Below, piece by piece: positions 2,786 through 33,785 of a stretch of 64,000 nt of DNA. The stretch's first letter is position 1, and every line of letters begins with the position of its first letter. Origin of the DNA: a virus (Duplodnaviria; Caudoviricetes); the IMG/VR virus record IMGVR_UViG_3300032307_000764, positions 160,001 through 224,000 of that record; one strand, 5' to 3'. The position numbers were made by a program, and so were the translations under genes. The notes beneath the pieces were generated by a model, which saw only the letters and a program-made list of their open reading frames with translations, was not told the DNA's origin and ran no database searches.

Positions 2786-2884
2786 GGCGATTTTTATTGG
2801 AAGGAACCCCCGCAGAGGTATCCGTTTTTTGTTCTTTTATTTATCCTCAAAATTTTTTTATTCTTTTAAGATGGTGTATATTTG

Positions 2885-2978
2885 CGGTGTAAATTAACTA
2901 CTCAGAATTTACGCTCATATATTTAGATTTTAATTGTCAAAAAAAACCAGATTCAACAGAGTCTGGTTTTTTTGTGTG
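2885..2978 (+). ncRNA. Candidate small RNA (promoter to terminator, no ORF)
   Basis: TATATTTG box 2877-2884, hairpin GTAAATT/AATTTAC 2889-2912, terminator 2941-2973, no ATG in between. Confidence 0.35.
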
Positions 2979-3033
2979 CGAAAGTTGACCGAAATGTGTC
3001 CGAAAGTTGTCCGATACATGTCCGATACACATC
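2979..3033 (+). repeat. Five 11-nt tandem repeats
   Basis: CGA at 2979, 2990, 3001, 3012, 3023. Confidence 0.8.
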
Positions 3034-3140
3034 GTGGGGGAACCTCCGAATTTCCCTAGCCCCTAGGGAAAAATCGGAAGCATTTAGTGAATCATTTTTT
3101 TGTTTTAGAAAAAACTATTACATTTGAGAAAACTGAAAAC

Positions 3141-3395
3141 ATGTACGTAGTCATTAGATCAAACCCAGACGGAGATAGCTATTACATTACATCTTCATTA
3201 GATAACGCCCGTGCTTCTTTTGAAAAAGAACGAAAGATTGTTAAGGAGAGTATTATTGATAGTGAAGAGAGTGTTGCTTTGCTGAGTGTTAAAGAAGACG
3301 AAGACTTTAGTCGAGGTGCTTGGGGTACTTGGTACGGGTGTGAGGTCATCGAAGAATTTGGTGTGACTCCTGATGAATCATATTTTCCTTTGTAG
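3141..3395 (+). CDS. Hypothetical early protein
   Basis: ATG 3141 downstream of TACATTTG promoter; the longer track start overlaps the promoter. Confidence 0.7.
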   Translation: MYVVIRSNPDGDSYYITSSLDNARASFEKERKIVKESIIDSEESVALLSVKEDEDFSRGAWGTWYGCEVIEEFGVTPDESYFPL

Positions 3396-3433
3396 AAAAT
3401 TCCATATATTTGTCTTAACTAAATAAAACCATT

Positions 3434-3796
3434 ATGGTAACGAAGGTAAAGAAAGATCAATTGGGGCTTTATGTAATTGCTGGAGGGTACATTACAAGAC
3501 CATTTTGGGGTACCTGTTTTAACGAGGGTGATGAGGTAAAGACCCATCATTTCGGCGGATCGACTCGTGCAGGTGTAACAGTCACCGACAAAAAAGAAAC
3601 CCATAACTTTAAAAGAGATGGTCAATATGAGTACTGGTGCACAACAGGACTCTGTTCAACCAAATACAAGAGGGGCGAATATACTCTGGAAGAAATTGAA
3701 AAGCAAACTGAGTGGTACAGTAAAGATATGATTCACGTTGCGGATCGTTTGACCGAAGCCAATCGCGAATTTTCAAAAACACTTACCCAGTCCTAA
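3434..3796 (+). CDS. Hypothetical early protein
   Basis: 120-aa ORF with its own promoter. Confidence 0.75.
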   Translation: MVTKVKKDQLGLYVIAGGYITRPFWGTCFNEGDEVKTHHFGGSTRAGVTVTDKKETHNFKRDGQYEYWCTTGLCSTKYKRGEYTLEEIEKQTEWYSKDMIHVADRLTEANREFSKTLTQS

Positions 3797-3863
3797 CATA
3801 AAAATCATTTTTTTCTTTGTAGAAAATTCCATATATTTGTATCAACCAATTAAATAAAAGGAG

Positions 3864-4739
3864 ATGCCAAATCACGTAACGAACTTATTGACTATTACCG
3901 CAGCTACTGAAGAGAGAGTAGATGAGATTAAATCTTTGATAAGTGGTAAATTTGACGATGGAGAAACAATGCACATTGATTTCAATAAGATTATCCCTCG
4001 TCCGGATTCATTGAATATCACTAGTGGAAGTACTACTGATAATGGTATTGCCATCTTGCAATATCGTGCAGGTGACGAAACAGCCATCCGAGGAATTATG
4101 CAATATCAATGGGGTAAGGGTTTTGATACTCCGGAGGATTTGATTAACTATATTCTCGAAAAAGGATCTGCTAATTTGGAAGAAGCTCAAAAAGCTTTGG
4201 ATAATGAAAAGCTTTATGGTCATCGGGATTGGTACGGATGGTCTAGTGATAAATGGGGTACAAAATGGAACGCATATTCCCAGGAATTGAATGAGTCCGG
4301 TGTTATCAAATTTGAAACTGCTTGGAGTACACCTGAACCAGTTATCTGTGCTCTTAGCCGAATGTTTCCCGATGCCCAATTCGATTTGAGATATGCAGAT
4401 GAAGATTTCGGTCACAACGTTGGAGAGTACACCTATGTAGATGGTGAGATCGTAGAAGAGTATCAACCAGAGGGTGGTTCCGATGAGGCTTATGAATTGG
4501 CAGCAGACATTACTGGCTATGAAGATTACTTCACCGACCGTATTTATGACATCGAAGCTGAGAGTATCGAAGAGCTTGAGGATTACGAAAAAGCTGCTAT
4601 CAGATATGTTTATCGAAAAGAGATCCTTGATGATTTCCCTAAGGTTGTTCTAAGCTATATGGAACAGTTAGCAGTCGAAGATGAGAATTACGAATTTGCT
4701 GAAAAGATTAAGAATACTGTAGCGGTAAACGAAGAGTAA
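3864..4739 (+). CDS. DUF1281/YubB (Api92-like) ferredoxin-like domain protein
   Basis: MPNHVTN, IDFNKIIPRP, WYGWSSDKWGTKWNA, FETAWSTPEPV motifs. Confidence 0.75.
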   Translation: MPNHVTNLLTITAATEERVDEIKSLISGKFDDGETMHIDFNKIIPRPDSLNITSGSTTDNGIAILQYRAGDETAIRGIMQYQWGKGFDTPEDLINYILEKGSANLEEAQKALDNEKLYGHRDWYGWSSDKWGTKWNAYSQELNESGVIKFETAWSTPEPVICALSRMFPDAQFDLRYADEDFGHNVGEYTYVDGEIVEEYQPEGGSDEAYELAADITGYEDYFTDRIYDIEAESIEELEDYEKAAIRYVYRKEILDDFPKVVLSYMEQLAVEDENYEFAEKIKNTVAVNEE

Positions 4740-4921
4740 AAATTATCACCTCCATATATAGAAAAGGGTCTGGATTATTTTCAGACCTTTTTTGTGTGCG
4801 GAGGTTTTTTCTGCAGCCGCGGATTATTGACTGAGGAACCCCCTCGAGGGTGTTAAAAACTATTTGGACGGAAATTCAGGAATCATTTTTATATATAGAA
4901 AATTCTATTTATATTTGTACT

Positions 4922-5080
4922 ATGAAATCTTTTAAGAAAATTCTGTTTAATTATAGCAAGGCTCGTGAACGTGAGCGTGCTAAGGAAGCGGGTTTTTTCG
5001 ATGGAAGGTTTAAGACAAAAGTTGTCACACCCAAGACCAAGAAGCCACCTAAGCACAAACATAAATTGTTTCAAGAATAA
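4922..5080 (+). CDS. Small basic hypothetical protein
   Basis: ATG 4922 just after TATATTTG; Lys/Arg-rich. Confidence 0.65.
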   Translation: MKSFKKILFNYSKARERERAKEAGFFDGRFKTKVVTPKTKKPPKHKHKLFQE

Positions 5081-5586
5081 TGGCTAAGATTAAAGTAGAT
5101 CAGAATAGGTTGCAGAGCAATCTGAAGAGAGGAGAGATTAAGTTCTCTTATGAGAAGGTTGACGGATCGATTAGAGAAGCTAGGGGTACAACACTTTTAG
5201 ATTTGATACCCGCATCACAGCATCCTAAGGATGGAGAGAAGGCTCACAAAGGTACAGCATTCTTTGATTTGGATAATTTGGCTTGGAGATCAATTTCTGA
5301 AAAGACCGAGTGTGTTGATATAGATTCAGATTCACTAGTTGAAATTTACGGGTCACCTATCATAGAGGAGGAGGAGATTAGCTTTATGTTATTCAAGGAA
5401 GGAACACTAGGTGATGTGTGGTTGAATAAATTGATAGAGGTTATCATGGATGCTACACCTCATCGTGCAACGGAGCTTGGTCACGGAGAGTTTAAAAAGC
5501 TAGTCCGAGTTTGTAGAAGGTACATTGAGGACGAGAGCTATGTTAATAGCCTTGAGGATCGATGGAATAAATTTGTAACCAATTAA
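5080..5586 (+). CDS. WYL_2/DUF2693-like SH3 beta-barrel protein
   Basis: LKRGEIKFSYEKVDGSIREARGT...FFDLDNLAWRS. Confidence 0.7.
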   Translation: MAKIKVDQNRLQSNLKRGEIKFSYEKVDGSIREARGTTLLDLIPASQHPKDGEKAHKGTAFFDLDNLAWRSISEKTECVDIDSDSLVEIYGSPIIEEEEISFMLFKEGTLGDVWLNKLIEVIMDATPHRATELGHGEFKKLVRVCRRYIEDESYVNSLEDRWNKFVTN

Positions 5587-5596
5587 ACTTAAATAT

Positions 5597-6052: not shown

Positions 6053-6233
6053 GAAACCAAAAACCCAAAGGAGCCTAAGAGAAATCTTAGGCTTTTTTGT
6101 GTGCGGATGTTTTTGTAGCAGCAGCGGATTATTGCCTGAGGAACCCCCGATGAACATCCCGTCAGACGGGATTTACAAATCATTTTTTATTTTGTAGAAA
6201 ATTCTATATATTAGCTAAGTAAACCAATTAGAC

Positions 6234-7502: not shown

Positions 7503-7767
7503 TGTTTAATTGGTTGAAACACGGAGAGGGGGCTCAGATCTTAGGATCTGGCCCTCTTTTTTTGTGGGGTTATGTTATGGAATCTAAAACCTCTGTAGGT
7601 GCTATGCCTGGGGAACCTTCGGGGAGTCCGATAATGCTGTTTAATCTTTTCTGAGAAACGTTAAACGAAAAAAATCAAAAAAAAGCTACTAAATTCTAAG
7701 GAATCATTTTTTATATCAAATGGAAGTTTCTATATTAGCTATGTAAACCAATTAAAAATAAAAAAAA

Positions 7768-8248: not shown

Positions 8249-8596
8249 ATGAACGCATGCACGCACTGCGGTACCTTACACGATAAAAAAGGTATGTACT
8301 GCTCAAAAAAATGCACTGACGCAGCTTATAGAGCTCGTAAGAAAGCAGCTACAGTTGTTACTGAAACATCGACAACTGACCCGGATGAGATCGTCGAAAA
8401 GTTCACCAAAAGGTTTGGTTTCCCTGTTAGGCTATTTTGGAACAAACGCCTAGAAAGAGAAAACTCTTCATGTGCAAAAGCAGGAACCACTTTGGAGTTC
8501 GAACAAATCTCTAAAAAGGGAGGTCGAGTAATTTATCGGGTTCGAAGAGGTAAAAGAAACTTCTTCACATCGGACAAGGAATTATTAGATTCCTAA
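8249..8596 (+). CDS. Zn-finger protein with C-terminal beta domain
   Basis: CxxC...YCSxxC-DAAYR; N-terminus like 11391, C-terminus like 28408. Confidence 0.75.
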   Translation: MNACTHCGTLHDKKGMYCSKKCTDAAYRARKKAATVVTETSTTDPDEIVEKFTKRFGFPVRLFWNKRLERENSSCAKAGTTLEFEQISKKGGRVIYRVRRGKRNFFTSDKELLDS

Positions 8597-8699
8597 TTGA
8601 AATCAAAGTAAATAAAAGGCTCAGGTTACTGGGCCTTTTTTGTGGAATCCTTTTTTTATATCTTAGAAAATTCTTATATTAGCTATCTAATCTATCATC

Positions 8700-9480: not shown

Positions 9481-9680
9481 ACTCCTATAAACTAGAAGAA
9501 GAAGAAGCCAGAGAAATCTGGCTTTTTTTGTGTGCGGATGTTTTTTCTGCAGCCGCGGATTATTGCCTGAGGAACCCCCTCATGATGGTATCCGGAAATT
9601 ATCCTTTAGATTTTCTTGGAAATCATTTTTTATATTAAGTAGAAGTTTCTATATTTGTATTAACCAATAAAAATAACACC

Positions 9681-11224: not shown

Positions 11225-11390
11225 TTTTTATATCAGGAAACTGCCTTTTCCTGAATTTTTTTACTGTCAAAACCCGAGATTAACCCCTCGGGTTTTTTTG
11301 TGGGTTTTAAATCTGTCTGCTGGAGATATTTTCTGGGGCACCCCATGTAATTTTACCGTATGTTTGCACTATAAAAGATAAACCAGATTT

Positions 11391-11744
11391 ATGAAATGTA
11401 TACAATGCGGAGATGAACACGAGAGGAAAGGAATGTATTGTTCAAAGAGCTGTACTGATAAAGCATATCGTGAGAGAAAGAAAAATAAGATAGACGTTCC
11501 GGAGGAAAAAGGTGAAAAGCTTAAATGGTGTAACTTCTGTGGTGCATCTATAGATGAATCACCAAAGCTAGCCTTCTGTGACGATGACCACGAGAAAGAC
11601 TATTGGAGAACTATCAGAGACGGAGGAACCCTCAAAATAAAGATCGATGCTAGAACAGAGATTCAAACAAAGAAATATTATAGAGTTCAAGATATTATAG
11701 AAGCAATGGTTAACAGAGGTAAGAACGGTGTAACATACTTTTGA
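11391..11744 (+). CDS. Double Zn-finger protein
   Basis: CIQC...YCSKSCTDKAYR and CNFC...FCDDDH. Confidence 0.75.
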   Translation: MKCIQCGDEHERKGMYCSKSCTDKAYRERKKNKIDVPEEKGEKLKWCNFCGASIDESPKLAFCDDDHEKDYWRTIRDGGTLKIKIDARTEIQTKKYYRVQDIIEAMVNRGKNGVTYF

Positions 11745-11783: not shown

Positions 11784-11909
11784 ATGAAGAACAGATTCCT
11801 ATGGATACTTGCTATACTTTGTGCAGTATCAATTCTACTAAGCTGTAAAACATCAAAGACAAACTGTGATGCTTACGGTGAGGTTCCTCAGAAGACATCC
11901 CGAGTTTAA
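11784..11909 (+). CDS. 41-aa predicted lipoprotein
   Basis: Manual translation MKNRFLWILAILCAVSILLSCKTSKTNCDAYGEVPQKTSRV; hydrophobic core plus LLSC lipobox. Confidence 0.65.
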   Translation: MKNRFLWILAILCAVSILLSCKTSKTNCDAYGEVPQKTSRV

Positions 11910-14157: not shown

Positions 14158-14459
14158 AGTAACCATGTAAAGGAAAGGAGACTTCGGTCTCCTTTTTTTG
14201 TGGGCTAAGGTTTCTGAAATCAGCAGCCACATCCAAACGCGGGGGTTCCTCAGTCAACCTCCAGGTAGCGTCGGATAGATTTTTTTAGAAAAAACTCAGG
14301 AATCATTTTTTATATTAAAGAGAAATTTCTATCTTTGCATAGTTCCAAAAGAGGGACAAACACCAAACAAAAAAAATCTAGAAAAATCTCAAAAATCATT
14401 TTTTATATTAAAGAGAATTTTCTACTTTAGCTAAGTAAACCAATTAAATATCTATAATT

Positions 14460-22099: not shown

Positions 22100-22102
22100 G
22101 GT

Positions 22103-22777: not shown

Positions 22778-22831
22778 ATCATTTTTTTAGTTGTAGAAAA
22801 TTCCCTATATTAGCTAAGTAAAATTTTTGAT

Positions 22832-23185: not shown

Positions 23186-23460
23186 GTAGAGGAAGATACA
23201 AAGGATATCGATACGAGATTAAAGGAGACATTATTCTTTTAAGGGAGGACAATCACGAGTTAGGTACAAATCATGCTGATGATCTTTTAAATATCTTAAA
23301 AGATCTTCTACCTTGGGACACATTAAAAGATAAAAGAGTATTCGTTCATATAATTAGAACGGATATGTGCTATGAACTAGTATTTGATTCAAAAACCGGA
23401 AGTGCTATACGATGGAATCAATGTGTTAGAACCCTGAGGGGAACAATATCAATGCGTTAG
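23182..23460 (+). CDS. Hypothetical protein
   Basis: 92 aa; ATGA overlap with the upstream gene. Confidence 0.65.
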   Translation: MSRGRYKGYRYEIKGDIILLREDNHELGTNHADDLLNILKDLLPWDTLKDKRVFVHIIRTDMCYELVFDSKTGSAIRWNQCVRTLRGTISMR

Positions 23461-23480
23461 AACCCTGAGGAGAACAATAT
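23425..23480 (+). repeat. 31-nt tandem duplication
   Basis: GTTAGAACCCTGAGG(G/A)GAACAATAT at 23425 and 23456. Confidence 0.85.
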
Positions 23481-23564
23481 TGGATAACCCACATAATCTG
23501 AAATCATTTTTTTAATTGTAGAAAATTCTCTATATTAGCTAAGTAATCAATTAAACAAAACAGC

Positions 23565-23771
23565 ATGCAAGTTCAAACGGAATTATCATTGACACAATTA
23601 GCACAAATAGCTCAGTCGAAATATCCAGATCTATCTGTTATCTGTAATGGATTCTCAGGTACTGTTTATCGAAAAGGTACCCCGGTGTTTAACACAAGCG
23701 GTCCATCTTCTGAGTCAGTGATCTCGGCTTATCTTTCAGGTTTGATTAATGCAGAGCAATTTTTAAAATAA
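23565..23771 (+). CDS. Hypothetical protein
   Basis: 68 aa with its own promoter. Confidence 0.7.
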   Translation: MQVQTELSLTQLAQIAQSKYPDLSVICNGFSGTVYRKGTPVFNTSGPSSESVISAYLSGLINAEQFLK

Positions 23772-23776
23772 GGGAT

Positions 23777-24004
23777 ATGAATGATTTTATTTACGTTCTA
23801 GTTATTTTGGTTTTATTAGCAGTATCTGTTGTACTTGCTGTATCCTTATTTTCAGAACGATGTGATCACCAATGGACTCTAATAAAGAACGCAGATCTTA
23901 TTAAATATAACCGAGAAGGTAAGGAAGTTCCTTATGGTTACCTTAGAGTTCACGAGTGTGAGAAGTGCAAGAAATTGAAAAAGCAACAAGTCGAAATGGA
24001 TTAG
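23777..24004 (+). CDS. Membrane-anchored Zn-ribbon protein
   Basis: N-terminal TM, CDHQW...CEKC. Confidence 0.7.
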   Translation: MNDFIYVLVILVLLAVSVVLAVSLFSERCDHQWTLIKNADLIKYNREGKEVPYGYLRVHECEKCKKLKKQQVEMD

Positions 24005-24006
24005 TT

Positions 24007-24147
24007 ATGAAGTGGACATTTTTTATATTTGGTACAATTGCGACGATTTTAGGAATTGCATTATCGTCTGACACAGAATGTATTGTAGGTGCTGTATTTC
24101 TTTCAGCTTACGCAGTGATCAATGAAATTCAAAAAGTAAAAAAATAA
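24007..24147 (+). CDS. Small two-TM protein
   Basis: MKWTFFIFGTIATILGIALS... Confidence 0.6.
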   Translation: MKWTFFIFGTIATILGIALSSDTECIVGAVFLSAYAVINEIQKVKK

Positions 24148-24152
24148 AAGCC

Positions 24153-24479
24153 ATGGGAGCTACACTAGTTAAGGATATGGAAAGAGTTAACTGTCCAGAT
24201 TGCAGTGCAGCTCCAGGAGAATACCACATGGATGGATGTGACATCGAAAGATGTACTGATTGTGAGGGACAAAGATTATCTTGTAGCTGTCCAGACCACG
24301 GAGATTATCAAAGAGAGAAATGGTCAGGAATAGCTTACGAGAAAGCTAGGTTAATAGCAGAAGAAAATAACCTATATGTTAAATGGAATAAAGGCTGGGT
24401 TAAATGCTCCAAAGATGATGAAGGAGCATCACACGATCTTAATGAAGCTACATTTCTTTTAATGTCTGGCAAAGTTTAG
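24153..24479 (+). CDS. Zn-binding phage protein
   Basis: CPDC..PGEYH..GCDIERC..CEGQRLSCSC motif known from phage early genes. Confidence 0.75.
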   Translation: MGATLVKDMERVNCPDCSAAPGEYHMDGCDIERCTDCEGQRLSCSCPDHGDYQREKWSGIAYEKARLIAEENNLYVKWNKGWVKCSKDDEGASHDLNEATFLLMSGKV

Positions 24480-24741
24480 TTTTGTTTGTTTAGTTTGTTT
24501 GGTTTAGAGAGGGACACAATTGTCCCTCTCTTTTTTTGTGCATTCTTTTTCTGTGTAGCTATGCTGCATCATGAGGAGGTTCCCCACACCTGGATACACC
24601 TGAAAACACCATAAACACCCCGGGGACACCCAGGAGGGGACTTGCGTATACGTGCGTACGTACGAGGGTTTTTATAGGTAATCATTTTTTATAATGTAGA
24701 AAATTCCATATATTTGTAATAACAATCTAAAACACAAACAA

Positions 24742-25023
24742 ATGAGTGAAACAAAATCCCCTATTGGTTTAGTAGTTTATAAAGGAGACTGGGAAGGAGC
24801 ACAATGGACTATCACAGGAAATCCTAAGAAAGAACTAACTATTAAAGAGTTTGAATCTGCTTATGACTTCGAAGAGTTTATCCAGCAAAAGGTTGACCAT
24901 GTAGGAATTGAATTTGATTCAGAGTTTTGTCAGTTCTTTGCCTATGCTGAAACAGAAGGAAGAGCAATCAAGTTCCTAAGAGATATTGAAGAATACTTTA
25001 AGAAAGTTCGAGATTTACTTTAG
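24742..25023 (+). CDS. Hypothetical protein
   Basis: 93 aa with promoter and terminator. Confidence 0.75.
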   Translation: MSETKSPIGLVVYKGDWEGAQWTITGNPKKELTIKEFESAYDFEEFIQQKVDHVGIEFDSEFCQFFAYAETEGRAIKFLRDIEEYFKKVRDLL

Positions 25024-25194
25024 TAAATCCATCAACATAAAAAAAAGGGTCTTCGGACTCTTTTTTTGTGCGCTAAGGTTTTCCTGTAGCAGCCACAAGA
25101 ATTCGGGAGGAACCCCAGCGAACGAATCTTAGAAATCATTTTTTATTTAGTAGAAAAATCTTTATATTTGTATCAACCAATTAAAACAAATATT

Positions 25195-25386
25195 ATGTCA
25201 TTAAGTCAAGAAGAAAAACAAGAGGTCCTAAAAGGAGTAGACCATGCAATTAACGCTACTGAACAAACAGTGTTGGCGTTGAAGGACACATACGAATTTG
25301 CTCATCTCAAAAGGATCTCAGACATCCTAGTTGCTCAAGAGCTTTCGTTGAAGGAATTAAAAGATTTACGAAACTCAATATCATAA
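25195..25386 (+). CDS. Small coiled-coil protein
   Basis: ATG 25195 after promoter and leader. Confidence 0.65.
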   Translation: MSLSQEEKQEVLKGVDHAINATEQTVLALKDTYEFAHLKRISDILVAQELSLKELKDLRNSIS

Positions 25387-25389
25387 GAT

Positions 25390-25611
25390 ATGAAAGCATT
25401 GTTAGGCTTAGTAGGATTGGCAATTGGAATTCTATTAATTGCTGCTTACTGTGAAAGCAAAAAGGATCCTTATGAAGAGGGTATGCACATGGACTATTCT
25501 ATTGAATGTGAGAACGGTTTTGTTTACAAATCTCTAAATCATCGAAGGGGAACAATTCAAGTTCTAAACTCTGATGGAACACCTTTAAGATGTGGAGAGA
25601 AAATACATTAA
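25390..25611 (+). CDS. Membrane-anchored Cys-containing protein
   Basis: N-terminal TM; IECENGFVYK. Confidence 0.7.
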   Translation: MKALLGLVGLAIGILLIAAYCESKKDPYEEGMHMDYSIECENGFVYKSLNHRRGTIQVLNSDGTPLRCGEKIH

Positions 25612-25720
25612 CTCATAAACGGCCAGGTTGGTAGACTGGGGGATATTCAGCGTACTATCCCAAGTCAAGGAATAATGTCTCGCCAGGCATGGAAGGCACC
25701 AAGATATAAACCGATGAGTT
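25610..25720 (+). ncRNA. Candidate structured RNA (multibranch)
   Basis: AACTCAT/ATGAGTT, CGG/CCG, TTGGT/ACCAA, GACT..GGGATA/TATCCC..AGTC and ATGTCT/AGGCAT stems; directly before a terminator. Confidence 0.5.
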
Positions 25721-25901
25721 ATTAATCCCAAGAGCAATCTTGGGATTTTTTGTGGACTAAGGTTTTCACGTAGCAGCCGCAGGAATTCTGGAGGAACCCC
25801 CGGCGAGCTGATCAGACTAAACCTATAGGTTGATTTATAGGAATCATTTTTTTATTTGTAGAAAAATCTATATATTAGCTTAGTAACTAAAAACAAGAAC
25901 A

Positions 25902-26357
25902 ATGAATCACGATTTTATTAAAACAGTAAAAGTTATATCTGTTCAAGATTGGGACAGATTAGTTGAAAAAACCTATGGGAAAACTTATTCTTTTCAGCAA
26001 CAAGATGATTGCAAAGATAGAGGTACAGAGTACATAACAGTTCCGTGTGAACCTGAAGATTATGAAAATGATACTATTCCTGAAATAATTAATGGGGAGG
26101 AAATGGGTGTAAGTTTTAAAAGTTGGTTGGAAAGAGATCCAAAAGCTCTTTTAAACCCTTCCGCTAAAGAACTTGAGGGTTCTGATTATTATTGGGGTAA
26201 TACACCAGCTGATGAAAAAGAGTACAAAGAGAACCCAAGTAATATTAGCTTGTTCTGGGAAAGAAATTTTTATCCTCATGTAAGTATGATTGTTAATGAT
26301 CTACATGCTAAAGGTATTCTTGAAGAAGGTGAGTATGGAATTGAAATTGATTGGTAA
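25902..26357 (+). CDS. Hypothetical protein
   Basis: 151 aa with its own promoter. Confidence 0.75.
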   Translation: MNHDFIKTVKVISVQDWDRLVEKTYGKTYSFQQQDDCKDRGTEYITVPCEPEDYENDTIPEIINGEEMGVSFKSWLERDPKALLNPSAKELEGSDYYWGNTPADEKEYKENPSNISLFWERNFYPHVSMIVNDLHAKGILEEGEYGIEIDW

Positions 26358-26373
26358 TTAAACAACAAGAAAG

Positions 26374-26619
26374 ATGAAAACACCAACAGCAGAAGAGTAC
26401 ATCAAAACAAATCTAACTGATTTTTGGGAAGGGGGTAAAGCACAGTATACAGGAGAAGATGTTGCAAAAGCAATGATTGAGTTCGCCAAGCTCCATGTAG
26501 AAGCTGCAATAAAAGCTTGTATAGAAGATGCACCTTCAGGGTCATCTACTGATACTGTAAGCCAAGAAGATGTTGTAGAAGCATTGAAAGACAGTTATCC
26601 ATTAGAAAACATTAAGTAG
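26374..26619 (+). CDS. Hypothetical protein
   Basis: AMIEFAKLHVEAAIKA...YPLENIK pattern typical of Bacteroidota phage small ORFs. Confidence 0.7.
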   Translation: MKTPTAEEYIKTNLTDFWEGGKAQYTGEDVAKAMIEFAKLHVEAAIKACIEDAPSGSSTDTVSQEDVVEALKDSYPLENIK

Positions 26620-26698
26620 CATGGAAATTCCAAGAATCATTTTTTTCTTTAAGTAGAATTTTCTATATTTGTAATGTTAATCAATTAAACAAAAACAA

Positions 26699-26836
26699 AT
26701 GGCAGAAAAAATCGTTTTAAGAGCATTTCAAGTTTGGTCAGCAACTTTAGGTTTGACAGTAGTATTTGGGATTGGTTTTGCAATCTATAGTTTAATCGTT
26801 GGTAACTATACCAGCACCGCAAGTTTTGAGTTTTAG
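26699..26836 (+). CDS. 45-aa single-TM protein
   Basis: Manual translation MAEKIVLRAFQVWSATLGLTVVFGIGFAIYSLIVGNYTSTASFEF; own promoter and terminator. Confidence 0.65.
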   Translation: MAEKIVLRAFQVWSATLGLTVVFGIGFAIYSLIVGNYTSTASFEF

Positions 26837-27000
26837 TTTTGTTTGTTTTGTTTTGGTTAAAGAGGAACTTCGGTTCCTCTTTTTTTGTGGGCTAACTTTT
26901 TCCTCCCTGCAGGGTAGGAATCTGGAGGAACCCCCGAACCCCGATTCTAGAATCATTTTTTTCTCCAGATTATAATGATTACATTGTAAGAAAAATAATA

Positions 27001-27285
27001 ATGGCCGATTGCTATAACTGTAAGTACAGAGGAGAAATTCCGGGGAGTGCACACTCATGCTGTGAAATCACAAAACATGTTCCTGCATTAAGTAAGGTTA
27101 AATCAGAATTTCTAGATATAGCTCTTATGATAGGGAAAGCTAAAATAAAAGGTAGCGATGGTACCAATGCAGTTAAACTAAATCCTGAAGGTGTTAAAAA
27201 CGGATGGGCTAGTTGGCCTCTAGACTTTGACCCAGTCTGGATAACATCCTGTGAATTATTCAAAGCCAAACCCAAACGTAAATAG
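27001..27285 (+). CDS. Cys-motif hypothetical protein
   Basis: CYNCKYR..PGSAHSCC...GWASWPLDFDPVWITSC. Confidence 0.75.
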   Translation: MADCYNCKYRGEIPGSAHSCCEITKHVPALSKVKSEFLDIALMIGKAKIKGSDGTNAVKLNPEGVKNGWASWPLDFDPVWITSCELFKAKPKRK

Positions 27286-27347
27286 GAATCATTTTTTTCT
27301 TTGTAGAAAATTCTATATATTTGGTATAACCAATTAAACAAAAGGAC

Positions 27348-27578
27348 ATGCCAACTACAGACACTTTTTATGTTTCCTCTAAGGACAACAAAGTAAGAAG
27401 AACCACAGAGCCCGGAAGAGAGTACTTCATCAAAGGAGGAAAGAAAGAAGGACAAGCTAAATACTTAATCGAAGTATTTGGATACGGCCACGAAGAAGTA
27501 GCTAAAGAAGTTAGGGACATGGTTGATAAAGGAGGAATGGACCAAAAATTATTTAGGATCAGAGTAGAGACCAGATAA
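27348..27578 (+). CDS. Hypothetical protein
   Basis: 76 aa with its own promoter. Confidence 0.7.
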   Translation: MPTTDTFYVSSKDNKVRRTTEPGREYFIKGGKKEGQAKYLIEVFGYGHEEVAKEVRDMVDKGGMDQKLFRIRVETR

Positions 27579-27833
27579 AGATATACAAGAATGGAGAAAG
27601 CCTAGAGATAGGTACTTGCTAAAGTGATTAAACCTCGCTTGTATGAAATCCCAAGTTAACTCTTGGGATTTTTTGTGTGCTAAGGTTTTGTGTTAGCACA
27701 TGCTATAAGCACCCGGGGTTCCCCAGGGGAGGGGTTGCGTATACGTGCGTACGTACGAAGGGATTTTCTTGGAATCATTTTTTTCTTTGAAGTAGGATAC
27801 TTATATTTAAGATAACCAATTAAAACAAATAAC

Positions 27834-27989
27834 ATGTACTCTTTAAAATGTGATTACTACACAAAACAATTCTCAACTCTTAATCAACTCCTAGGTGACA
27901 TTGCACTCTCAGGAATGGACCCAAATTATGAGATTACCTTCAATGGTAAAGGAACCGGTGAACTAGCTATTGATCTTATTCAATTTTAA
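27834..27989 (+). CDS. 51-aa hypothetical protein
   Basis: Manual translation; promoter and leader upstream. Confidence 0.65.
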   Translation: MYSLKCDYYTKQFSTLNQLLGDIALSGMDPNYEITFNGKGTGELAIDLIQF

Positions 27990-27992
27990 ACC

Positions 27993-28145
27993 ATGTTCAT
28001 AATACTCTTTATCATCTTATCATTCTTTACCTTGATATCAATAGGAGCAGCTTATGCAATTAAAGAAAGAAAAATGACTATTACAGCAATCATTATATCC
28101 TCAGTCTGGATCCTTTCTTTATATTTAATCTTATATTTGAGGTAA
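27993..28145 (+). CDS. 50-aa two-TM protein
   Basis: Manual translation; two hydrophobic stretches. Confidence 0.55.
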   Translation: MFIILFIILSFFTLISIGAAYAIKERKMTITAIIISSVWILSLYLILYLR

Positions 28146-28407
28146 GCTTTAGTTCATAGAAGCAGTAATAAATTATCACTAAATCCCAAGAGCAATCTTG
28201 GGATTTTTTTTGTGCTGAAGTTTTCTGGTAGCAGCCACAGGAATTCTGGAGGAACCCCCGCTGGAAAACCCCTAAAACCCCTAAAGTCCCTCTCGGAAAA
28301 AAGTTTGAATTATTTCCAAGAAATTCCAAGAATCATTTTTTATATCGAGTAGAAGTTTCTATATTAGCTATGTTAATCAATTAAACAAAACCAAAAAACA
28401 AAACATT

Positions 28408-28722
28408 ATGAAAACTTTAACAGCAGAACAAAAAGCAAAAAAGGCAGCTTATGACAAAGCTTACAGAGCAAAGAAAAAAGCTCAAACTCAAATGGAAGCT
28501 TTCAAAATCCCAAGCGAAGACAAATTCGAAAAAAGCTTTGACTATCCGGTTCGACTTTACAAAAACTTGAAAATGGAGAAAACAAATTCTTACTGTGCAG
28601 CAGCAGGAGCACTCTTAAGCTTTGTTAAAATCAAAAACGAAAACAACCAAATCGTTTTCAGAGTTAAAAGAACTGGTCGCAGAACTTTCTATACAACTTC
28701 AAATGAACTTATCCAAAAATAA
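28408..28722 (+). CDS. Basic protein sharing a C-terminal domain with 8249
   Basis: DKAYRAKKK; FDYPVRLY...FRVKRTGRRTFYT. Confidence 0.75.
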   Translation: MKTLTAEQKAKKAAYDKAYRAKKKAQTQMEAFKIPSEDKFEKSFDYPVRLYKNLKMEKTNSYCAAAGALLSFVKIKNENNQIVFRVKRTGRRTFYTTSNELIQK

Positions 28723-28945
28723 GAGCATCCAAAAAACAAATGAGGAGACTTCGGTCTCCTTTTTTGTGACCTAAGGTTTTGCAAAAGACGTATGCATGTA
28801 AGACGAGGGAACCTCCGAGACTTTAAGCAGCTCTAGCAAAAACTGATACATCTATCAAAAACTGATAATACATAGCTTTACCATAAGCTCCTGAGGAACC
28901 CCAGCCATTTTACTGGAGATCTTACCAGGAGTTTTTGATCCTTTT

Positions 28946-29003
28946 CTATCCTACTTCTACCTCTTTTCTACTCTTCTTCTACAACTCCTCTACTCTTCTT
29001 CTA
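28946..29003 (+). repeat. Six CTA motifs at exact 11-nt phase in a pyrimidine-rich tract
   Basis: CTA at 28946, 28957, 28968, 28979, 28990, 29001. Confidence 0.8.
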
Positions 29004-29100
29004 ATCACCTGAGGAACCCCAGGAACCCTAGCATTTTCTATTTGGGAATCATTTTTTTATTTGTGGAAAATTCTATACATTTATAACAAATAAAACAAAG

Positions 29101-29292
29101 ATGAATAACTACGCTAAACTAGTTTCACCAGACGGAGAAATCGTAGGAGTACTTGAACTTGAGGCAGGAACTTTAAACGAGACCCTCGTTGTTGAAGCAG
29201 CTCTTGAATTGGGTATTAAATTAGAAGCATGCACTGAGGAAGAGTACAACAATTTTGATGGTGATGAAATCAAACCAAGTTGGATGGAATAA
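29101..29292 (+). CDS. Small acidic protein
   Basis: 63 aa with its own promoter. Confidence 0.7.
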   Translation: MNNYAKLVSPDGEIVGVLELEAGTLNETLVVEAALELGIKLEACTEEEYNNFDGDEIKPSWME

Positions 29293-29363
29293 TTTCAAAA
29301 ATCATTTTTTATCTTCAGTAGATTTTTCTATATTAGCTAGGTTAATCAATATAACCACTCAAC

Positions 29364-29540
29364 ATGAAACAGGTACTTAAAGTCTTAGCATTTCCATTCA
29401 TCTTGTTATGGAGCTTATGTCAATCATTGCTAGAAATCCTTGAAGCATTATTCGCAAAGCCATTTGTGTTTCGCATGGGAAAGAACAGCATAGAAATCGG
29501 GATCGTGCCCCTGGTACTAATCATCTGGTTAATCTGCTAG
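29364..29540 (+). CDS. 58-aa hydrophobic protein
   Basis: Manual translation; its promoter is identical to the one at 29553. Confidence 0.55.
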   Translation: MKQVLKVLAFPFILLWSLCQSLLEILEALFAKPFVFRMGKNSIEIGIVPLVLIIWLIC

Positions 29541-29617
29541 AAAATTTACTAAAATCATTTTTTATCTTCAGTAGATTTTTCTATATTAGCTAAGTAATCA
29601 ATTAAACACAAATACAT

Positions 29618-30007
29618 ATGCGAATCTTAATTTTATCAGTGTTACTAATGGTAATTACCAGCTTCACCACAGTAACACTAGCTGCTATCCCTAGCAGCCA
29701 AGGCCTGGTTACCGATACAGTGTTAAAGAAGTATTCATACTTAGACACTTCAAAGGTAATCAACACTGAACAGCTCAAGATTGACCCAAGGTGGGTTCAA
29801 GGGCTATCTAATATTTCAAATTACAAACCCATCCTACATATTGACCCTGGCAGCCAGGACACGGTTTCTAATTATACTTTAGCTCGAATCACAGAACCAA
29901 TATTACACATCGACCCTGGCAATCAGGAATTTGGTTCTCTATACAACTATAATTCATTAGCTATTTTTAAGGAACCTGTACTACACATTGACCCCGGTCG
30001 TGATTAA
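29618..30007 (+). CDS. Secreted protein with three P(I/V)LHIDPG repeats
   Basis: Signal peptide MRILILSVLLMVITSFTTVTLAA; repeats differ at synonymous sites. Confidence 0.75.
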   Translation: MRILILSVLLMVITSFTTVTLAAIPSSQGLVTDTVLKKYSYLDTSKVINTEQLKIDPRWVQGLSNISNYKPILHIDPGSQDTVSNYTLARITEPILHIDPGNQEFGSLYNYNSLAIFKEPVLHIDPGRD

Positions 30008-30202
30008 GAAATAAAAAAAAAGAAAAGACTCTTCGGAGTCTTTTTTTGTGGCCCAAGGGTTTAAGGCAAATAAGGCAAACAAGGAAGTGCTCCTGAGGAA
30101 CCCCCGTACATCTTCCATCAATCATTTTTTTATTTAGAGAAAAATCCATACATTTATACTAGCCAATTAAAAATATTATTACCTTTACCTAAACAAAAAG
30201 AC

Positions 30203-30379
30203 ATGAAAGTAAAAATAGGAGAAAAGATTTACGATTCAGAAAAAGAACCTATTATGGTGATATTATCAGATGCAGACAAAAAAAATATTCACAATATGTT
30301 ACCAACAGCAACAAAATATTGTAGTTTTCCTGATGAAATCCCAACAGAAGATATAAAAGAATTTATGAAGACCACATAA
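30203..30379 (+). CDS. 58-aa hypothetical protein
   Basis: Manual translation MKVKIGEKIYDSEKEPIMVIL... Confidence 0.65.
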   Translation: MKVKIGEKIYDSEKEPIMVILSDADKKNIHNMLPTATKYCSFPDEIPTEDIKEFMKTT

Positions 30380-30388
30380 TCATAATAC

Positions 30389-30488
30389 AGTCAGGTGGTG
30401 TAATTGGTAACACGGGGTTCGAGTCCCCAATCTTCTCGAAGGGAAGATAAAGGCTGGCAAGATACAGGTTCGAGCCCTGTCCTGACTA
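30389..30488 (+). tRNA. Atypical ~100-nt tRNA-like gene (nominal anticodon CGA, Ser-like; no encoded CCA)
   Basis: 7-bp acceptor AGTCAGG/CCTGACT, D-arm GTGT-AATTGGTA-ACAC, T-arm ACAGG-TTCGAGC-CCTGT; GGGG-TTCGAGT-CCCC at the anticodon position plus a 35-nt extra region. Confidence 0.65.
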
Positions 30489-30553
30489 CAAAATCATTTT
30501 TTTAATTGGAAGTAATTCCTTACATTTATACTAACCAATTAAAACAAAACAAA

Positions 30554-30709
30554 ATGAAAACACACAAATTAGTTTACCCACTAGCTTACACTTCACTCTT
30601 CACATTAGTAATAGGAGCAATCCTAATGGTAGGAGGAAATCACATAGGAGATTATATGGTTGCAGGAGGTGCAATCGTAGCAACATTACTCATGCACAAA
30701 TTAGATTGA
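30554..30709 (+). CDS. Small two-TM protein
   Basis: ATG 30554 after promoter and leader. Confidence 0.65.
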   Translation: MKTHKLVYPLAYTSLFTLVIGAILMVGGNHIGDYMVAGGAIVATLLMHKLD

Positions 30710-30853
30710 GTTTGATTGGTTAACACATACAACTCAAATCAGAAAGACCAGCTTCCTCCAGCTGGTCTTTTTTTGTGGACCTTTGACAAATCTTTAAGAA
30801 GACAACTGGAACTTAGCAGGAACCCCCGATATATAAGAGATAACAACAACATT

Positions 30854-31069
30854 ATGAAAGAGTATCTTTTATCAATCAAGAATGGTGAAACCATCAACAC
30901 AATCAAAGCACATACACTAGAAGAAGCAATTCTCTACTTTGCAAAGGTTAAAAACCTATCACAAGATTCATTATTAGACATCTATAGTGTTAATCCTAGA
31001 CCATTCACAATAAACCTTGCTGATTATTGTGAAGCTCATAAAATAGATCCTTACATGCAAACTAAGTGA
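30854..31069 (+). CDS. Hypothetical protein (late-type promoter)
   Basis: ATG 30854 after GATATATA at 30828; the track start 30716 spans a terminator. Confidence 0.65.
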   Translation: MKEYLLSIKNGETINTIKAHTLEEAILYFAKVKNLSQDSLLDIYSVNPRPFTINLADYCEAHKIDPYMQTK

Positions 31070-31266
31070 TAGTAAGTATTCCTTATTCCTAAGGTTTACA
31101 TCCCTATTTTCCAGATAATAGTATACTAGCATAAGTCTGAGGAGGTACCCCATTCTATTTTACCATAGCTTAACATAAGGTTTACCATAGCCTAGCATAA
31201 GCTCCTGAGGAACCTCCCTAAGGATACTAAAAACAAGTAACAGGATATATACAATAAAACACAACC

Positions 31267-31494
31267 ATGGAATTACTAAGATTTGAAGATTACATCAACG
31301 AAAATAACAACATATCTGAACAAGAAGATATGATGATTAAAAATTTTAAAACTGATGTTCAAAGAGTACTTATGCAAGACACAGTAGCTAGACCTAACTT
31401 TGCGGAAGGAACCTTCGGGAGTAGACCAGCATCTTTACCAGAAATGATCTCTTCTCTAGAATCTATTATTGCTGATTATAAATCTAAGATGTAA
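31267..31494 (+). CDS. Tag protein MELLRFEDYINE
   Basis: GATATATA at 31244; N-terminal tag. Confidence 0.7.
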   Translation: MELLRFEDYINENNNISEQEDMMIKNFKTDVQRVLMQDTVARPNFAEGTFGSRPASLPEMISSLESIIADYKSKM

Positions 31495-31705
31495 AGTTAA
31501 CCACATACCTACAAAAAGAGATCTTAGGATCTCTTTTTTTGTGACCATAAGACTTACCATAAGCTCCTGAGGAACCCCAGAAAAGATCAGCATAGCTCCA
31601 GCATTATATCTTACATTAGCTGCATGGGATACTGGATCTGGGCTGATTAGAATCATTTTTTATATTGTGGAATTTTCCATACATTAGCTAAACAAACAAT
31701 TAGCT

Positions 31706-31909
31706 ATGAGTGAAAGTAACTTTGAAAAGAATCTCAAAAAGAAGAACCCTGATATTGACATTAATAGGATGCTGAATATCTTTGATGCGAAGATAGAAGA
31801 GGTACAGGCATCACAGGGACTTGAAGAGATTAGATTACCCTTAGGATGTGATCTCAATAAAGCAATCTTTGCTTCTGTGCTTTCAGAATACTTAAACACA
31901 AAAATATAA
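31706..31909 (+). CDS. Hypothetical protein
   Basis: 67 aa with its own promoter. Confidence 0.65.
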   Translation: MSESNFEKNLKKKNPDIDINRMLNIFDAKIEEVQASQGLEEIRLPLGCDLNKAIFASVLSEYLNTKI

Positions 31910-32005
31910 CATCAATGTGGGTTTTTAATATAACATCAATTGGAGTTTTTTTCATTCTATTTTTAATTCTTTGCCTAATGGCAGGTCTTGCAATTGGCTT
32001 GATCA

Positions 32006-32335
32006 TTGGAGATAGTAGAAACAATCTACCGGGTCATAGAAACCCACCACCTCCTCCAACAAAAAAAAAGGATGAAGTTTAATGAGTTCTGTCATAGAAT
32101 ATGTGATGGTCTATATGATCCACGATTCCCTATGGAAGACCAATGCTCTGGCTATCACCAACTAAGAAACGTAGTACTTAACAAAATCCCTCCACACCCT
32201 TTAGAAATAAAAGACTGGCTGGATGATCCAGAAGCACCACCACCACAAGAAAGATATCTAAGAGCACTACACCCAAAGCTAAGAAAATTCGTTATAGATA
32301 ATTGGGACAAAATAAAAGAACTAGAGGTTGATTGA
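32006..32335 (+). CDS. Hypothetical protein
   Basis: Start uncertain (TTG 32006 or ATG 32072). Confidence 0.6.
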   Translation: MEIVETIYRVIETHHLLQQKKRMKFNEFCHRICDGLYDPRFPMEDQCSGYHQLRNVVLNKIPPHPLEIKDWLDDPEAPPPQERYLRALHPKLRKFVIDNWDKIKELEVD

Positions 32336-32544
32336 TTAACACCACATCCGCTAAAAAAAGAAAGAGACTAACTGTCTCTTTTTTTGTGACCTAATCTTAC
32401 CCAAATGCTTACCAGATAATCTGCTGGGGTTCCCCAGTACATCTACCAGCATTAACTTAGGACCTCATAACATATTCCAAGAATCATTTTTTATATTGTA
32501 GAAAAATCCATACATTTACTCTATAACCAATTAAACAAAACAAA

Positions 32545-32928
32545 ATGATTATCTTCACTTCAAACATTACAAAAGTACAGGTATACCCTAAATACAGACC
32601 AAAAATCTATGAATCATCCTTAGCATATAGAAAGGACTACAAAAAGCGAGTAGGAACCAAATTCTTGTTCTTTCCAGTCTATGAAATAGTACCTCACGCA
32701 GTTATCCATGAAGGAGGATTATTTAATTCAACTGAAGAGTTTGAGTGTGATCTAAAAGACTTCAAAAGTGATTACTACTACTTCGAAGATGGTGTACTAT
32801 ATGAAAACCCACATTGCACCATCTATATGAACGATCGTTCTAGCAAAGAGGTACACTTTGAAACAGTAGACGAGCTAAATGCCTATGTAGAAGAGCTCAA
32901 ATCTAAAGCCCCACATATCATTGTTTAA
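32545..32928 (+). CDS. Hypothetical protein (last island gene)
   Basis: 127 aa with its own promoter. Confidence 0.75.
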   Translation: MIIFTSNITKVQVYPKYRPKIYESSLAYRKDYKKRVGTKFLFFPVYEIVPHAVIHEGGLFNSTEEFECDLKDFKSDYYYFEDGVLYENPHCTIYMNDRSSKEVHFETVDELNAYVEELKSKAPHIIV

Positions 32929-33039
32929 ACCCCCCTTAAAACACACATTATATATGAAGTAACTTATCATCCATATATCACATCTAAAGGCTCTTAAACA
33001 AGCCTAAAACAACACCCAAGGTATCACTAAAATATACCC

Positions 33040-33785
33040 TCCCCGAAGGCCTCCCAAGAAGAGGCCTTTTTTAATGCCCCTAGGAATCCCTACCAGCTAG
33101 GGATAAATCTGAGGGGGTTCCCCCAATTGGGACAACATTTAAAAAGCAAGGATATCAGGGTATACCCCAGTAGCATAGGCAGCATAAATGCTCCGGGGAA
33201 CCCCCATTTAAAACACCTATAAAACACCTTGGAAACACCCCTGGATAGGCCCTTAAAATAGGGGTCCAAAATGCCTAAAAAGGACCCCTAAAATAGGGGG
33301 TAAAAACGGGGGGAGAGACCCCTAAAATAAGGGGGGCTAAAAGGGGTAAAAAGGCCCTTAAAATAGGGGGTAAAACAGGGGGCTAGGACCCTAAAAACGG
33401 GCCTTATATACGTATACTATATAGGGGGGGATAAAAATGTAATTGATCCCTTAGTCGGCCTGTTTCTAAATTTCTACGTGCGGGCCCATACCCCCTTTTT
33501 AGGGATTCGCCTCGAAATCTTGGCTACTATCTTGGATAGATCTTGGCTACCCCCCTAAAGGGTAAATCCTGTAGGTGTTCCCATTTTAGAAATTTGCGTG
33601 CGTATCGGAAAGGGGTGTTTTTAGGGTTCGCCTCGGGCCTTACTATGTTGATCCAGCACTACGCGCGCGAAGAAGGGGGGTAAACCCTCAAAAACCCTTG
33701 GTGTTCAGTTTTGAAAATTTTACGTGCGGGGCGGAACAGGGGTTTCCTAGGGCTCGCCTCGATTACTCTTTGATATATAGAGTAT
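33040..33785. repeat. Right non-coding repeat block (island boundary)
   Basis: ACACC x3 at 11-nt phase (33213, 33224, 33235); CCC(C/T)TAAAATA(A)GGGG x4 (33250-33370); three ~122-125-nt degenerate repeats starting 33468, 33590, 33715, each with CGTGCG and TAGGG..TCGCCTCG. Confidence 0.8.

Follow-up and report, generated by a model that had tools for sequence, protein, structure and literature searches.

The window analyzed here (64,000 nucleotides, bases 160001–224000 of the 248,191-bp, about 85% complete virus record IMGVR_UViG_3300032307_000764) opens with an island of small genes, all on the plus strand, whose intergenic regions repeatedly carry a short GC-rich dyad, GRGGWWCCYC (hereafter, the box), at an almost constant distance behind intrinsic terminators. 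Our analysis showed that the box is the core of a 14-bp site that is under purifying selection and is coupled to the terminator and not to the promoter of the next gene. We tentatively interpret this 14-mer, at somewhat less than an even chance, as the predicted site of a dimeric lineage-specific protein that marks the 3′ boundary of each gene cassette, most likely in the role of a roadblock or insulator.

An earlier note on this DNA, made from the letters alone, had counted about 30 boxes within 1–33.3 kb and judged them to be rare by chance. The comparison with 100 dinucleotide shuffles of the window bears this out, with 25 exact copies against a mean of 0.50 and a maximum of 3, all of them located at 3037–33204; seven one-mismatch copies with the same flanks (961, 2801, 7610, 11335, 17640, 28806 and 30817) bring the total to about 32. 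The confinement to the island also holds at the scale of the whole record, where 25 of the 27 exact copies are inside and only two lie beyond. Three relatives (G001, G002 and G004; the studied phage is G000), retrieved by an IMG/VR scan with the commonest 14-mer and carrying many copies each, have one island apiece, with 14 copies in 18 kb, 24 in 28 kb and 15 in 30 kb, respectively. More distant relatives (20 sigma-factor records and 14 loci encoding the AAA protein of the island, at 51–72% identity) lack the box, the GTG tail of the terminators (see below) and the dense cassette array, with the exception of G006, a G004-like fragment that has the box; the box system is thus confined to a narrow clade. 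Outside the island, GGWWCC and other GGNNCC palindromes are approximately 2-fold under-represented, and avoidance of restriction sites was rejected as an explanation for the box, since this under-representation is common to GGNNCC palindromes and not box-specific. A literature search with four spellings of the box returned nothing relevant, and no paper of the library searched mentions the motif.

Alignment of the copies extended the conserved unit to a 14-bp dyad, C-K-G-R-G-G-W-W-C-C-Y-C-M-G, where the symmetry reaches beyond the core: C at −2 is matched by G at +11, and K (T or G) at −1 by M (A or C) at +10. The two central bases are variable, with AA, TT, AT and TA all occurring. Both orientations exist, as had been reported, with a bias toward an AA center along the direction of transcription (83% of 78 boxes in the four phages). 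The consensus is mostly CTGAGGAACCCCCG in G000, G001 and G002 and the perfectly symmetric CTGGGGAACCCCAG in G004, a difference that suggests co-evolution with a phage factor.

For the analysis of spacing, terminators were located by a simple hairpin-plus-T-run scan, and the offset is the distance that separates the T-run's end from the box's first base. The 53 terminator-linked boxes of the four phages have a median offset of 39 nt (17 at 39, 12 at 40 and 5 at 41), and 50 of them fall within 34–42. Within ±3 nt of 39 we find 80% of the copies, as compared to no more than 30% around any common value under random placement between terminator and promoter (20,000 trials). All 18 terminators from which a fixed offset had originally been deduced were recovered, the first eight at 39 nt and the other ten at 35–42; the 2-nt gap from the originally reported values is a difference in the bases counted.

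The complete module starts with a GC-rich hairpin and a 6–8-base T-run, which lead into GTG(K)GCTAAGGTTTT; some 20 bases under no constraint separate this block from the box, and a short free linker connects the box to the next promoter. The same order (hairpin, T-run, GTG, ∼39 nt, box) is found in the relatives. The block following GTG is moderately conserved (GTGKGCTAAGGTTTT in G000, G001 and G004); between it and the box there are ∼13 positions of zero information, then a weak GGAT ∼10 nt before the box, and then CT. The GTG directly follows the T-run at nearly every intrinsic terminator, in the island or not (TTTTTGTG occurs 38 times on the plus strand of the whole record and its complement 6 times), and the earlier statement that terminators outside the island end in TTTTGTG and lack the box was confirmed at 35068–35083, 47054 and 61542 (ending TTTTTTGTG). 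The association of box and terminator holds for most copies but not for all, as seven of the window's 25 exact copies have no terminator right beside them (11880, 28893, 29011, 31142, 31207 and 33195, plus 3037, at 63 nt); the terminator-less boxes lie mostly in repeat-rich non-coding stretches near 28.8–29.0, 31.1–31.2 and 33.2 kb. Likewise, the intervening sequences were correctly described as differing, but they are not unrelated: weak similarity links these highly diverse spacers in a chain, as one diversified family, with sub-families that are near-identical over ∼55 bp (e.g. at boxes 4833, 9569 and 17157). The modules and related features of the island are as follows.

4788–4844 (+): terminator T-run, 39-nt spacer and 14-mer box GAGGAACCCC at 4833.
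6093–6149 (+): terminator T-run, 39-nt spacer and box at 6138; homology with G001 stops at 6149.
9523–9580 (+): terminator T-run, 39-nt spacer and box at 9569.
14193–14253 (+): terminator T-run, 42-nt spacer and inverted box GGGGTTCCTC at 14242.
17111–17168 (+): terminator T-run, 39-nt spacer and box at 17157; three natural joints start from 17167/17168.
18047–18104 (+): terminator T-run, 39-nt spacer and box at 18093; a box-less variant joins 18056 to a promoter.
19150–19207 (+): terminator T-run, 39-nt spacer and a perfectly palindromic 14-mer, box at 19196; the promoter is 15 nt further on.
20229–20282 (+): terminator T-run, 36-nt spacer and box at 20271; homology with G001 stops at 20282.
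24531–24587 (+): terminator T-run, 38-nt spacer and box GAGGTTCCCC at 24576.
25061–25118 (+): terminator T-run, 39-nt spacer and box at 25107; natural joint from 25118 to 30120.
25746–25802 (+): terminator T-run, 39-nt spacer and box at 25791.
26880–26936 (+): terminator T-run, 38-nt spacer and box at 26925.
27669–27726 (+): terminator T-run, 40-nt spacer and box GGGGTTCCCC at 27715.
28204–28260 (+): terminator T-run, 37-nt spacer and box at 28249.
30041–30106 (+): terminator T-run, 47-nt spacer and box at 30095.
31534–31580 (+): terminator T-run, 28-nt spacer and box at 31569.
32379–32437 (+): terminator T-run, 40-nt spacer and box GGGGTTCCCC at 32426.
33067–33125 (+): last terminator of the island, 41-nt spacer and box at 33114; no early promoter behind.
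2967–3048 (+): terminator T-run and box at 3037, an outlier at 63 nt.
7557–7621 (+): terminator and one-mismatch box GGGGAACCTT at 7610, 46 nt.
11293–11346 (+): terminator and one-mismatch box GGGGCACCCC at 11335, 35 nt; the G001 ortholog has GGGGTACCCC.
17584–17651 (+): terminator and one-mismatch box GTGGAACCCC at 17640, 49 nt; G001 has GAGGAACCCC.
28760–28817 (+): terminator and one-mismatch box AGGGAACCTC at 28806, 40 nt.
30768–30828 (+): terminator and one-mismatch box CAGGAACCCC at 30817, 42 nt.
11880–11889 (no strand assigned): box without an adjoining terminator, 44 nt upstream of the promoter at 11934.
28893–29020 (no strand assigned): boxes 28893 and 29011 within non-coding DNA that contains short tandem repeats, upstream of the promoter at 29047.
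31142–31216 (no strand assigned): boxes 31142 and 31207 without a terminator; a natural variant fuses box 31207 to box 31569.
33195–33204 (no strand assigned): last box, perfect GGGGAACCCC, bordering the repeat-rich non-coding region.
18119–18178 (+): example of the early promoter module, AATCATTTTT, TTTG, ∼19 nt, TAnnTTTG and an A-rich leader.
8636–8660 (+): compact junction, terminator TTTTTTGTGG running directly into AATCATTTTT without a box module.

Several further elements accompany the box. A second perfect 12-bp dyad, AACCTATAGGTT, follows the box at a distance of exactly 19 nt and precedes the promoter module by ∼10 nt at six junctions in three phages (20300–20311 and 25820–25831 in the window, two in G002 (L093/L094) and two in G004 (L096)), with divergent filler between box and dyad. 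A tract of alternating purines and pyrimidines, up to ∼20 nt long (CGTATACGTGCGT...) and with G-runs on its flanks, is located between box and promoter at 17202, 24645 and 27738 and also occurs in G001, G002 and G004; it could form Z-DNA or a cruciform. Short tandem repeats of the ACACC type (AAACACC / ATACACC) directly follow some boxes (24586–24640 and 33205–33240), and analogous repeats in G002 and G004 are GAAAGACATCT and GAAAACACCT.

Evidence for selection acting on the site itself comes from orthologous junctions. In nine orthologous pairs from G000 and G001, identity reaches 94% in the 14-mer but only 61% in the mid-spacer and 63% in the 30 nt that follow the box (p about 1e-11 for each comparison with the 14-mer), while indels in the spacers partly compensate one another. 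At junctions of G000, G002 and G004 that follow orthologous genes, the spacers are unalignable and the offsets are nevertheless kept (39/41, 39/40/34, 42/40, 39/40 and 39/36), which indicates that site and terminator distance are both maintained while the sequence in between turns over. Even the inverted 14-mer at 14242, an exact reverse complement, is also present in its G001 ortholog, with normal spacing in both. Overall, the box is under purifying selection.

The dyad character proposed in the earlier note is supported, as the symmetry extends to 14 bp, inverted copies keep their spacing and no RNA fold was found. In particular, RNAalifold applied to 50 modules gave −0.15 kcal/mol with no covariation and no consensus fold, the folding energy of the spacers is barely below that of shuffled sequences (mean z of −0.47), and an E-value-based Rfam scan of positions 1–35000 returned a tRNA and chance matches, with no family fitting the box module. 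The absence of an RNA fold, the tolerated inversion with spacing kept and the variable center point to a double-stranded DNA site, and the box fits the predicted recognition site of a dimer on such DNA. Pairing of the spacer with the box (GGTT/AACC) was considered and rejected, as it is not preserved in G002 or G004. Small inverted repeats of variable sequence occur in modest excess, centered ∼20 nt upstream of the box (z = 3.9). The contigs from a single metatranscriptome run are 70–217 nt long and mostly intragenic, and none covers a box; a search for RNA data sets containing 24500–28300 gave none.

The early promoter module (AATCATTTTT, TTTG, ∼19 nt, TAnnTTTG; 49 copies in the record, mostly at 160–193 kb) precedes most island genes and is followed by an A-rich leader without a Shine-Dalgarno sequence. 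Its −33 TTTG and −7 TAnnTTTG elements are those of the promoter type of Bacteroides and relatives (PMC4747536). Promoters, terminators and boxes all peak at 160–193 kb of the record, and the terminator is situated 60–150 nt upstream of the promoter or, at compact junctions, abuts it. The distance from box to promoter is looser than that from terminator to box: 15–17 nt in 9 cases, 38–49 nt in 19 cases, and longer in others. In the island, 23 of 36 terminator-like sites carry a box, the remainder being compact junctions or probable false calls inside genes. On the promoter side, about 20 of the 45 island early promoters have neither a terminator upstream nor a box, none of the early promoters outside the island has one, and the terminator at the island end is boxed despite having no promoter behind it. 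The box is therefore coupled to the terminator and not to the promoter. Three other ideas on the promoter side were dropped: the GAATC of the promoter as a GANTC site (the G is present in only 25 of 49 promoters and the counts are as expected), an extracytoplasmic function (ECF)-type promoter with GGAAC as −35 (across 78 boxes, no column between +12 and +34, counted from the start of the box, exceeds 0.35 bit), and the promoter 14-mer as an IMG/VR query, which is too unspecific.

Comparison of closely related phages revealed where cassettes are exchanged. Over the first 18 kb of the island, G001 is 78–85% identical to G000, and the differences are whole-cassette indels. Homology between the two ends 2 nt past the box at 6149 and 20282, and also at promoter starts (6178, 6667 and 7015) and terminators (14174 and 18066). 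Many further rearranged joints were read from related-strain contigs of three other metagenomes aligned to positions 13001–33000. In these, 17167/17168 is joined to promoters 20576, 23502 and 26635 (two of these three joints contain a 27-nt linker identical to that behind box 6138), 25118 is joined to promoter 30120, the terminator GTG at 18056 directly to promoter 20322, and box 31207 to box 31569; there are also promoter-to-promoter deletions (e.g. 20575 to 21736), and promoter edges are the commonest joints. Overall, the module parts are the points at which shuffled cassettes are joined, as are the promoter-early stem-loops (PeSLs) in T4-type phages. The expectation that breakpoints would map to the box was thus realized at its 3′ edge, but they occur equally or more often at the 5′ edge of the promoter and also at box-less junctions. 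Besides, alignments must end at the box edge since the linker behind it is unconstrained. For all these reasons the box is not established as a crossover point. Neither a tyrosine recombinase (PF00589) nor a serine recombinase was matched in the 85%-complete record.

Taken together, these data are consistent with a composite boundary module in which the box is the third part and which would close each cassette of a hyperplastic early-gene array. A protein bound to it would act just behind the terminator, one polymerase-length downstream, and its most likely role would be that of a polar roadblock or insulator halting read-through polymerases before the next strong promoter is occluded. The repeated modules may double as PeSL-like patches, with cassettes being exchanged by the general recombination of the phage. 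The binder is probably phage-encoded. The first island gene, 1190–1579 (+), codes for a 129-aa GcrA-like helix-turn-helix (HTH) protein (Pfam GcrA E = 3e-4, below the cut-off) that is kept in G002 (48%) and G004 (59%) and whose Atlas neighbours are GcrA clusters (feature score 0.89–0.91); a PDB sequence search with it gave nothing significant. We regard this protein as a weak candidate binder, only a lead. The conserved island genes also include two zinc-ribbon-like ones (8249–8596 and 11391–11744). No match to ParB_N (PF02195) was found in the record, and searches for an Xre-type HTH and a CcrM-type methylase also gave no matches.

A number of observations weigh against the interpretation of the box as a protein-bound roadblock. 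The T-rich block following GTG is A-rich in G002, about one third of the boxes have no adjoining terminator, and the sub-threshold GcrA-like HTH protein is the sole DNA-binding candidate among the conserved early genes. The GAGG form occupies the terminator-side half in 69% of the boxes and the promoter-side half in 13%; such a strong asymmetry between the halves, together with the orientation bias, is unexpected for a simple homodimer site. As the spacers are chain-related, part of the constant spacing may reflect inheritance and gene conversion and not selection. The existence of compact box-less junctions (8636, record position 144046 and the natural variant joining 18056 to a promoter) makes the box module dispensable or optional, and since G000 and G001 also differ by indels at box-less junctions, shuffling does not require the box.

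The alternative that fares best, albeit an unlikely one in our estimate, dispenses with a binder altogether: the boxes would be pure homology patches of the PeSL type, the best-preserved stretch of a repeated terminator/promoter cassette, some 30 copies of which are kept uniform by recombination and gene conversion and serve only to offer the phage's recombination system short identical stretches for cassette shuffling. The single chain-linked spacer family, the sub-families near-identical over ∼55 bp, the occurrence of joints at the borders of every conserved part, with the promoter in the lead, and the lack of an encoded recombinase all agree with this view, and PeSLs provide a precedent that includes GGGG...CCCC motifs (PMC2839356). 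On the other hand, gene conversion would homogenise the whole module, whereas the 14-mer is conserved at ∼94% and its 20 neighboring bases are devoid of information. Furthermore, dyad symmetry, tolerated inversion and the differing consensus of G004 point to recognition and not to mere copying, and 14 bp is less than the roughly 50-bp recombination patches of T4 (PMC2839356).

The PeSL cassettes of T4-type phages (Arbiol et al. 2010, PMC2839356; Comeau et al. 2014, PMC4122927) are in any case a close analogue, and the initial statement that no described system matches the box was too strong. Both systems combine a terminator with a strong host-type early promoter that has an AT-rich upstream part, both are present in dozens of copies in hyperplastic regions among small ORFan genes, in both the break points of indels and replacements between close relatives fall in or beside the elements, and both have palindromic G-run/C-run motifs, which in PeSLs were speculated by the authors to bind protein (PMC2839356). 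The differences are that the G/C dyad in our case is not part of the terminator stem but a separate 14-bp site 39–40 nt behind a complete hairpin and T-run, that it is far better conserved than its flanks, and that the promoters are of the Bacteroidota −33/−7 type. What is new with respect to PeSLs is the separate conserved dyad at a fixed distance, the second dyad AACCTATAGGTT, the Bacteroidota promoters and the part-by-part re-joining at the population level.

Less likely still is an operator function, in which a phage or host dimer at the box would repress the early promoters at a later switch or activate them from upstream. The box is indeed upstream of strong early promoters, its distances to them form two classes (with the box center of the short class near −71, by our estimate), and a GcrA-like HTH gene opens the island. 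However, these classes differ by 25–30 nt, which is no whole number of helical turns, and the terminator distance is tighter than the promoter distance. The many early promoters that lack a box in the island (about 20 of 45), as well as all of those outside, and the lack of a promoter behind the last box-bearing terminator are also at odds with an operator. A similarly low probability is assigned to a more far-reaching version of the protein-bound site, namely that a dedicated phage protein of an unrecognised kind at the dyad would define the 3′ boundary of every early cassette, making the dyad either a counterpart, in bacterial viruses, of polar roadblock terminators or the crossover site of an integron-like exchange that needs no classical recombinase; together with AACCTATAGGTT, exactly 19 nt away, it would constitute a fixed-geometry nucleoprotein 'grammar' of the intergenic DNA.

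Integron-like site-specific exchange, in which an unrecognised recombinase or nuclease would cross over or cleave at the box and the cassette would be promoter-gene-terminator-box, appears improbable. It would account for homology repeatedly ending 1–2 nt past the box (6149, 20282, three times at 17167/8, and 25118), for the one box-to-box deletion, for the restriction of the box to the hyperplastic array and for its attC-like position at the cassette 3′ end. In both systems a repeated site is found at cassette 3′ ends in an array, and homology between arrays ends there. Nonetheless, no tyrosine or serine recombinase was found, alignment ends at the box edge are expected from the unconstrained linker, joints are more numerous at the promoter edge, and indels occur at box-less junctions. 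Moreover, integron attC sites are imperfect palindromes of 57–141 nt recombined as a folded single strand by an integrase, whereas here the dyad is short and of the perfect type with no attC-like foldable imperfect palindrome, there is no integrase, and the cassettes have their own promoter and terminator.

We consider it very unlikely that the module is a selfish miniature insertion, that is, a ∼65-bp non-autonomous element (GCTAAGG... box ...CAGG) targeting the junction TTTTTTGTGG/AATCATTTTT. The compact junctions (8636, record 144046 and the natural variant) do read exactly like filled ones from which the insert has been taken out, GG being present on either side, and a constant left arm would account for the fixed offset. 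Yet terminal inverted repeats and a transposase are both lacking, the right arm varies, no orthologous junction was seen to be filled in one phage and compact in another, and in G004 the box is absent only together with the terminator. Least probable of all is an RNA-level element (a processing or protein-binding site in read-through transcripts), for although 83% of the boxes share one orientation relative to transcription and small inverted repeats are in excess upstream of them, there is no conserved fold, covariation or Rfam match, the position behind strong terminators leaves most transcripts without a box, and inverted copies persist in orthologs.

Returning to the favored roadblock interpretation, parallels in overall design are provided by the eukaryotic polar protein-roadblock terminators, e.g. 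Reb1/Nsi1 and TTF-I, acting behind RNA polymerase I genes, where a site for a sequence-specific DNA-binding protein likewise lies a short fixed distance past a T-rich release element in a preferred orientation. In contrast to these, a complete intrinsic terminator precedes the site here, and the T-rich block is not conserved in G002. KorB/ParB operators and matS-type palindromes are intergenic sites of 13–16 bp that are present in many copies, at variable promoter distances or as domain marks; unlike the box, they are not terminator-tied, and no ParB_N protein is encoded here. The REP/BIME elements of enterobacteria, with ∼35-nt hairpin units spread genome-wide and mobilised by RAYT transposases, are similar in being mosaics of short conserved post-terminator intergenic motifs, some parts of which are protein-bound; their hairpin-unit genome-wide spread and RAYT mobilisation are not seen in this system.

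Large phages store and exchange their host-takeover and anti-defence genes in hyperplastic early regions, and the insulation and exchange of cassettes in them are known only in outline, from the PeSLs of T4-type coliphages and vibriophages. The present case adds a system of the Bacteroidota type from freshwater jumbo phages that are uncultured, a strongly selected discrete 14-bp site with fixed geometry to the terminator, and direct evidence, at the population level, for the re-joining of cassettes where module parts begin or end. The 14-mer provides a handle for fishing out the factor and for asking whether cassette boundaries are protein-defined, and the module may serve Bacteroidota genetics as a compact terminator-insulator-promoter part.

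With respect to the phage itself, the suggestion of a T5-like frame did not hold, given the absence of a DNA match, the 248-kb jumbo record, the Bacteroidota-type promoters and its own sigmaA-like factor. Megablast of 8 kb against 50,697 phage records gave no DNA match to known phages, and DNA of this phage is present in freshwater metagenomes. The −33/−7 promoters, the sigma factor, the freshwater source and the lack of a DNA match together indicate an uncultured jumbo phage, with no T5 kinship found, whose host is probably a freshwater member of the Bacteroidota. The record encodes RNR, a type II topoisomerase subunit and a helicase (all three T4-like functions) as well as many glycosyltransferases; its large structural open reading frames (ORFs) match no named PHROG, and for many ORFs of the island G002 and G004 contain no ortholog. 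The sigma-70-family factor (286 aa, regions 2–4, window 56606–57466 (+); Sigma70_r2 68.9 bits) presumably resembles, in size and build, the short primary sigma (sigmaA-like) of Bacteroidota. Its gene is under a conserved early promoter at 56543, relatives of it are encoded at >580 IMG/VR loci, and upstream there is a gene for a small protein with an HNH-like histidine motif (56189–56542).

The right edge of the island (33200–33760) is repeat-rich and non-coding, with four to five CCCYTAAAATAGGGG dyads at a 35-bp period and ∼120-bp repeated blocks, each part of which is present in two copies 121 or 246 bp apart; this region could be an origin or another cis-acting center. GC skew is negative at 28–34 kb. 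ARAGORN called no tRNA in the window and misses a tRNA-like gene of 100 nt at 30389–30488 (+) that scores 43.4 bits with the Rfam tRNA model and shows two apparent T-arm-like hairpins; its final 32 nt (30462–30493) have very deep coverage in a lake metagenome and are the sole piece common to many unrelated contigs. At 12721–17068, two paralogous cassettes encoding 478- and 503-aa proteins, with weak and mostly sub-threshold VWA/CobT-like matches, flank a MoxR-type AAA ATPase (14460–15431), and one of the two is missing in G001. Finally, a WYL_2 (Sm-like SH3 barrel) domain is present in two early proteins (5080–5586 and 17761–18009), both of which are kept in G002 and G004.

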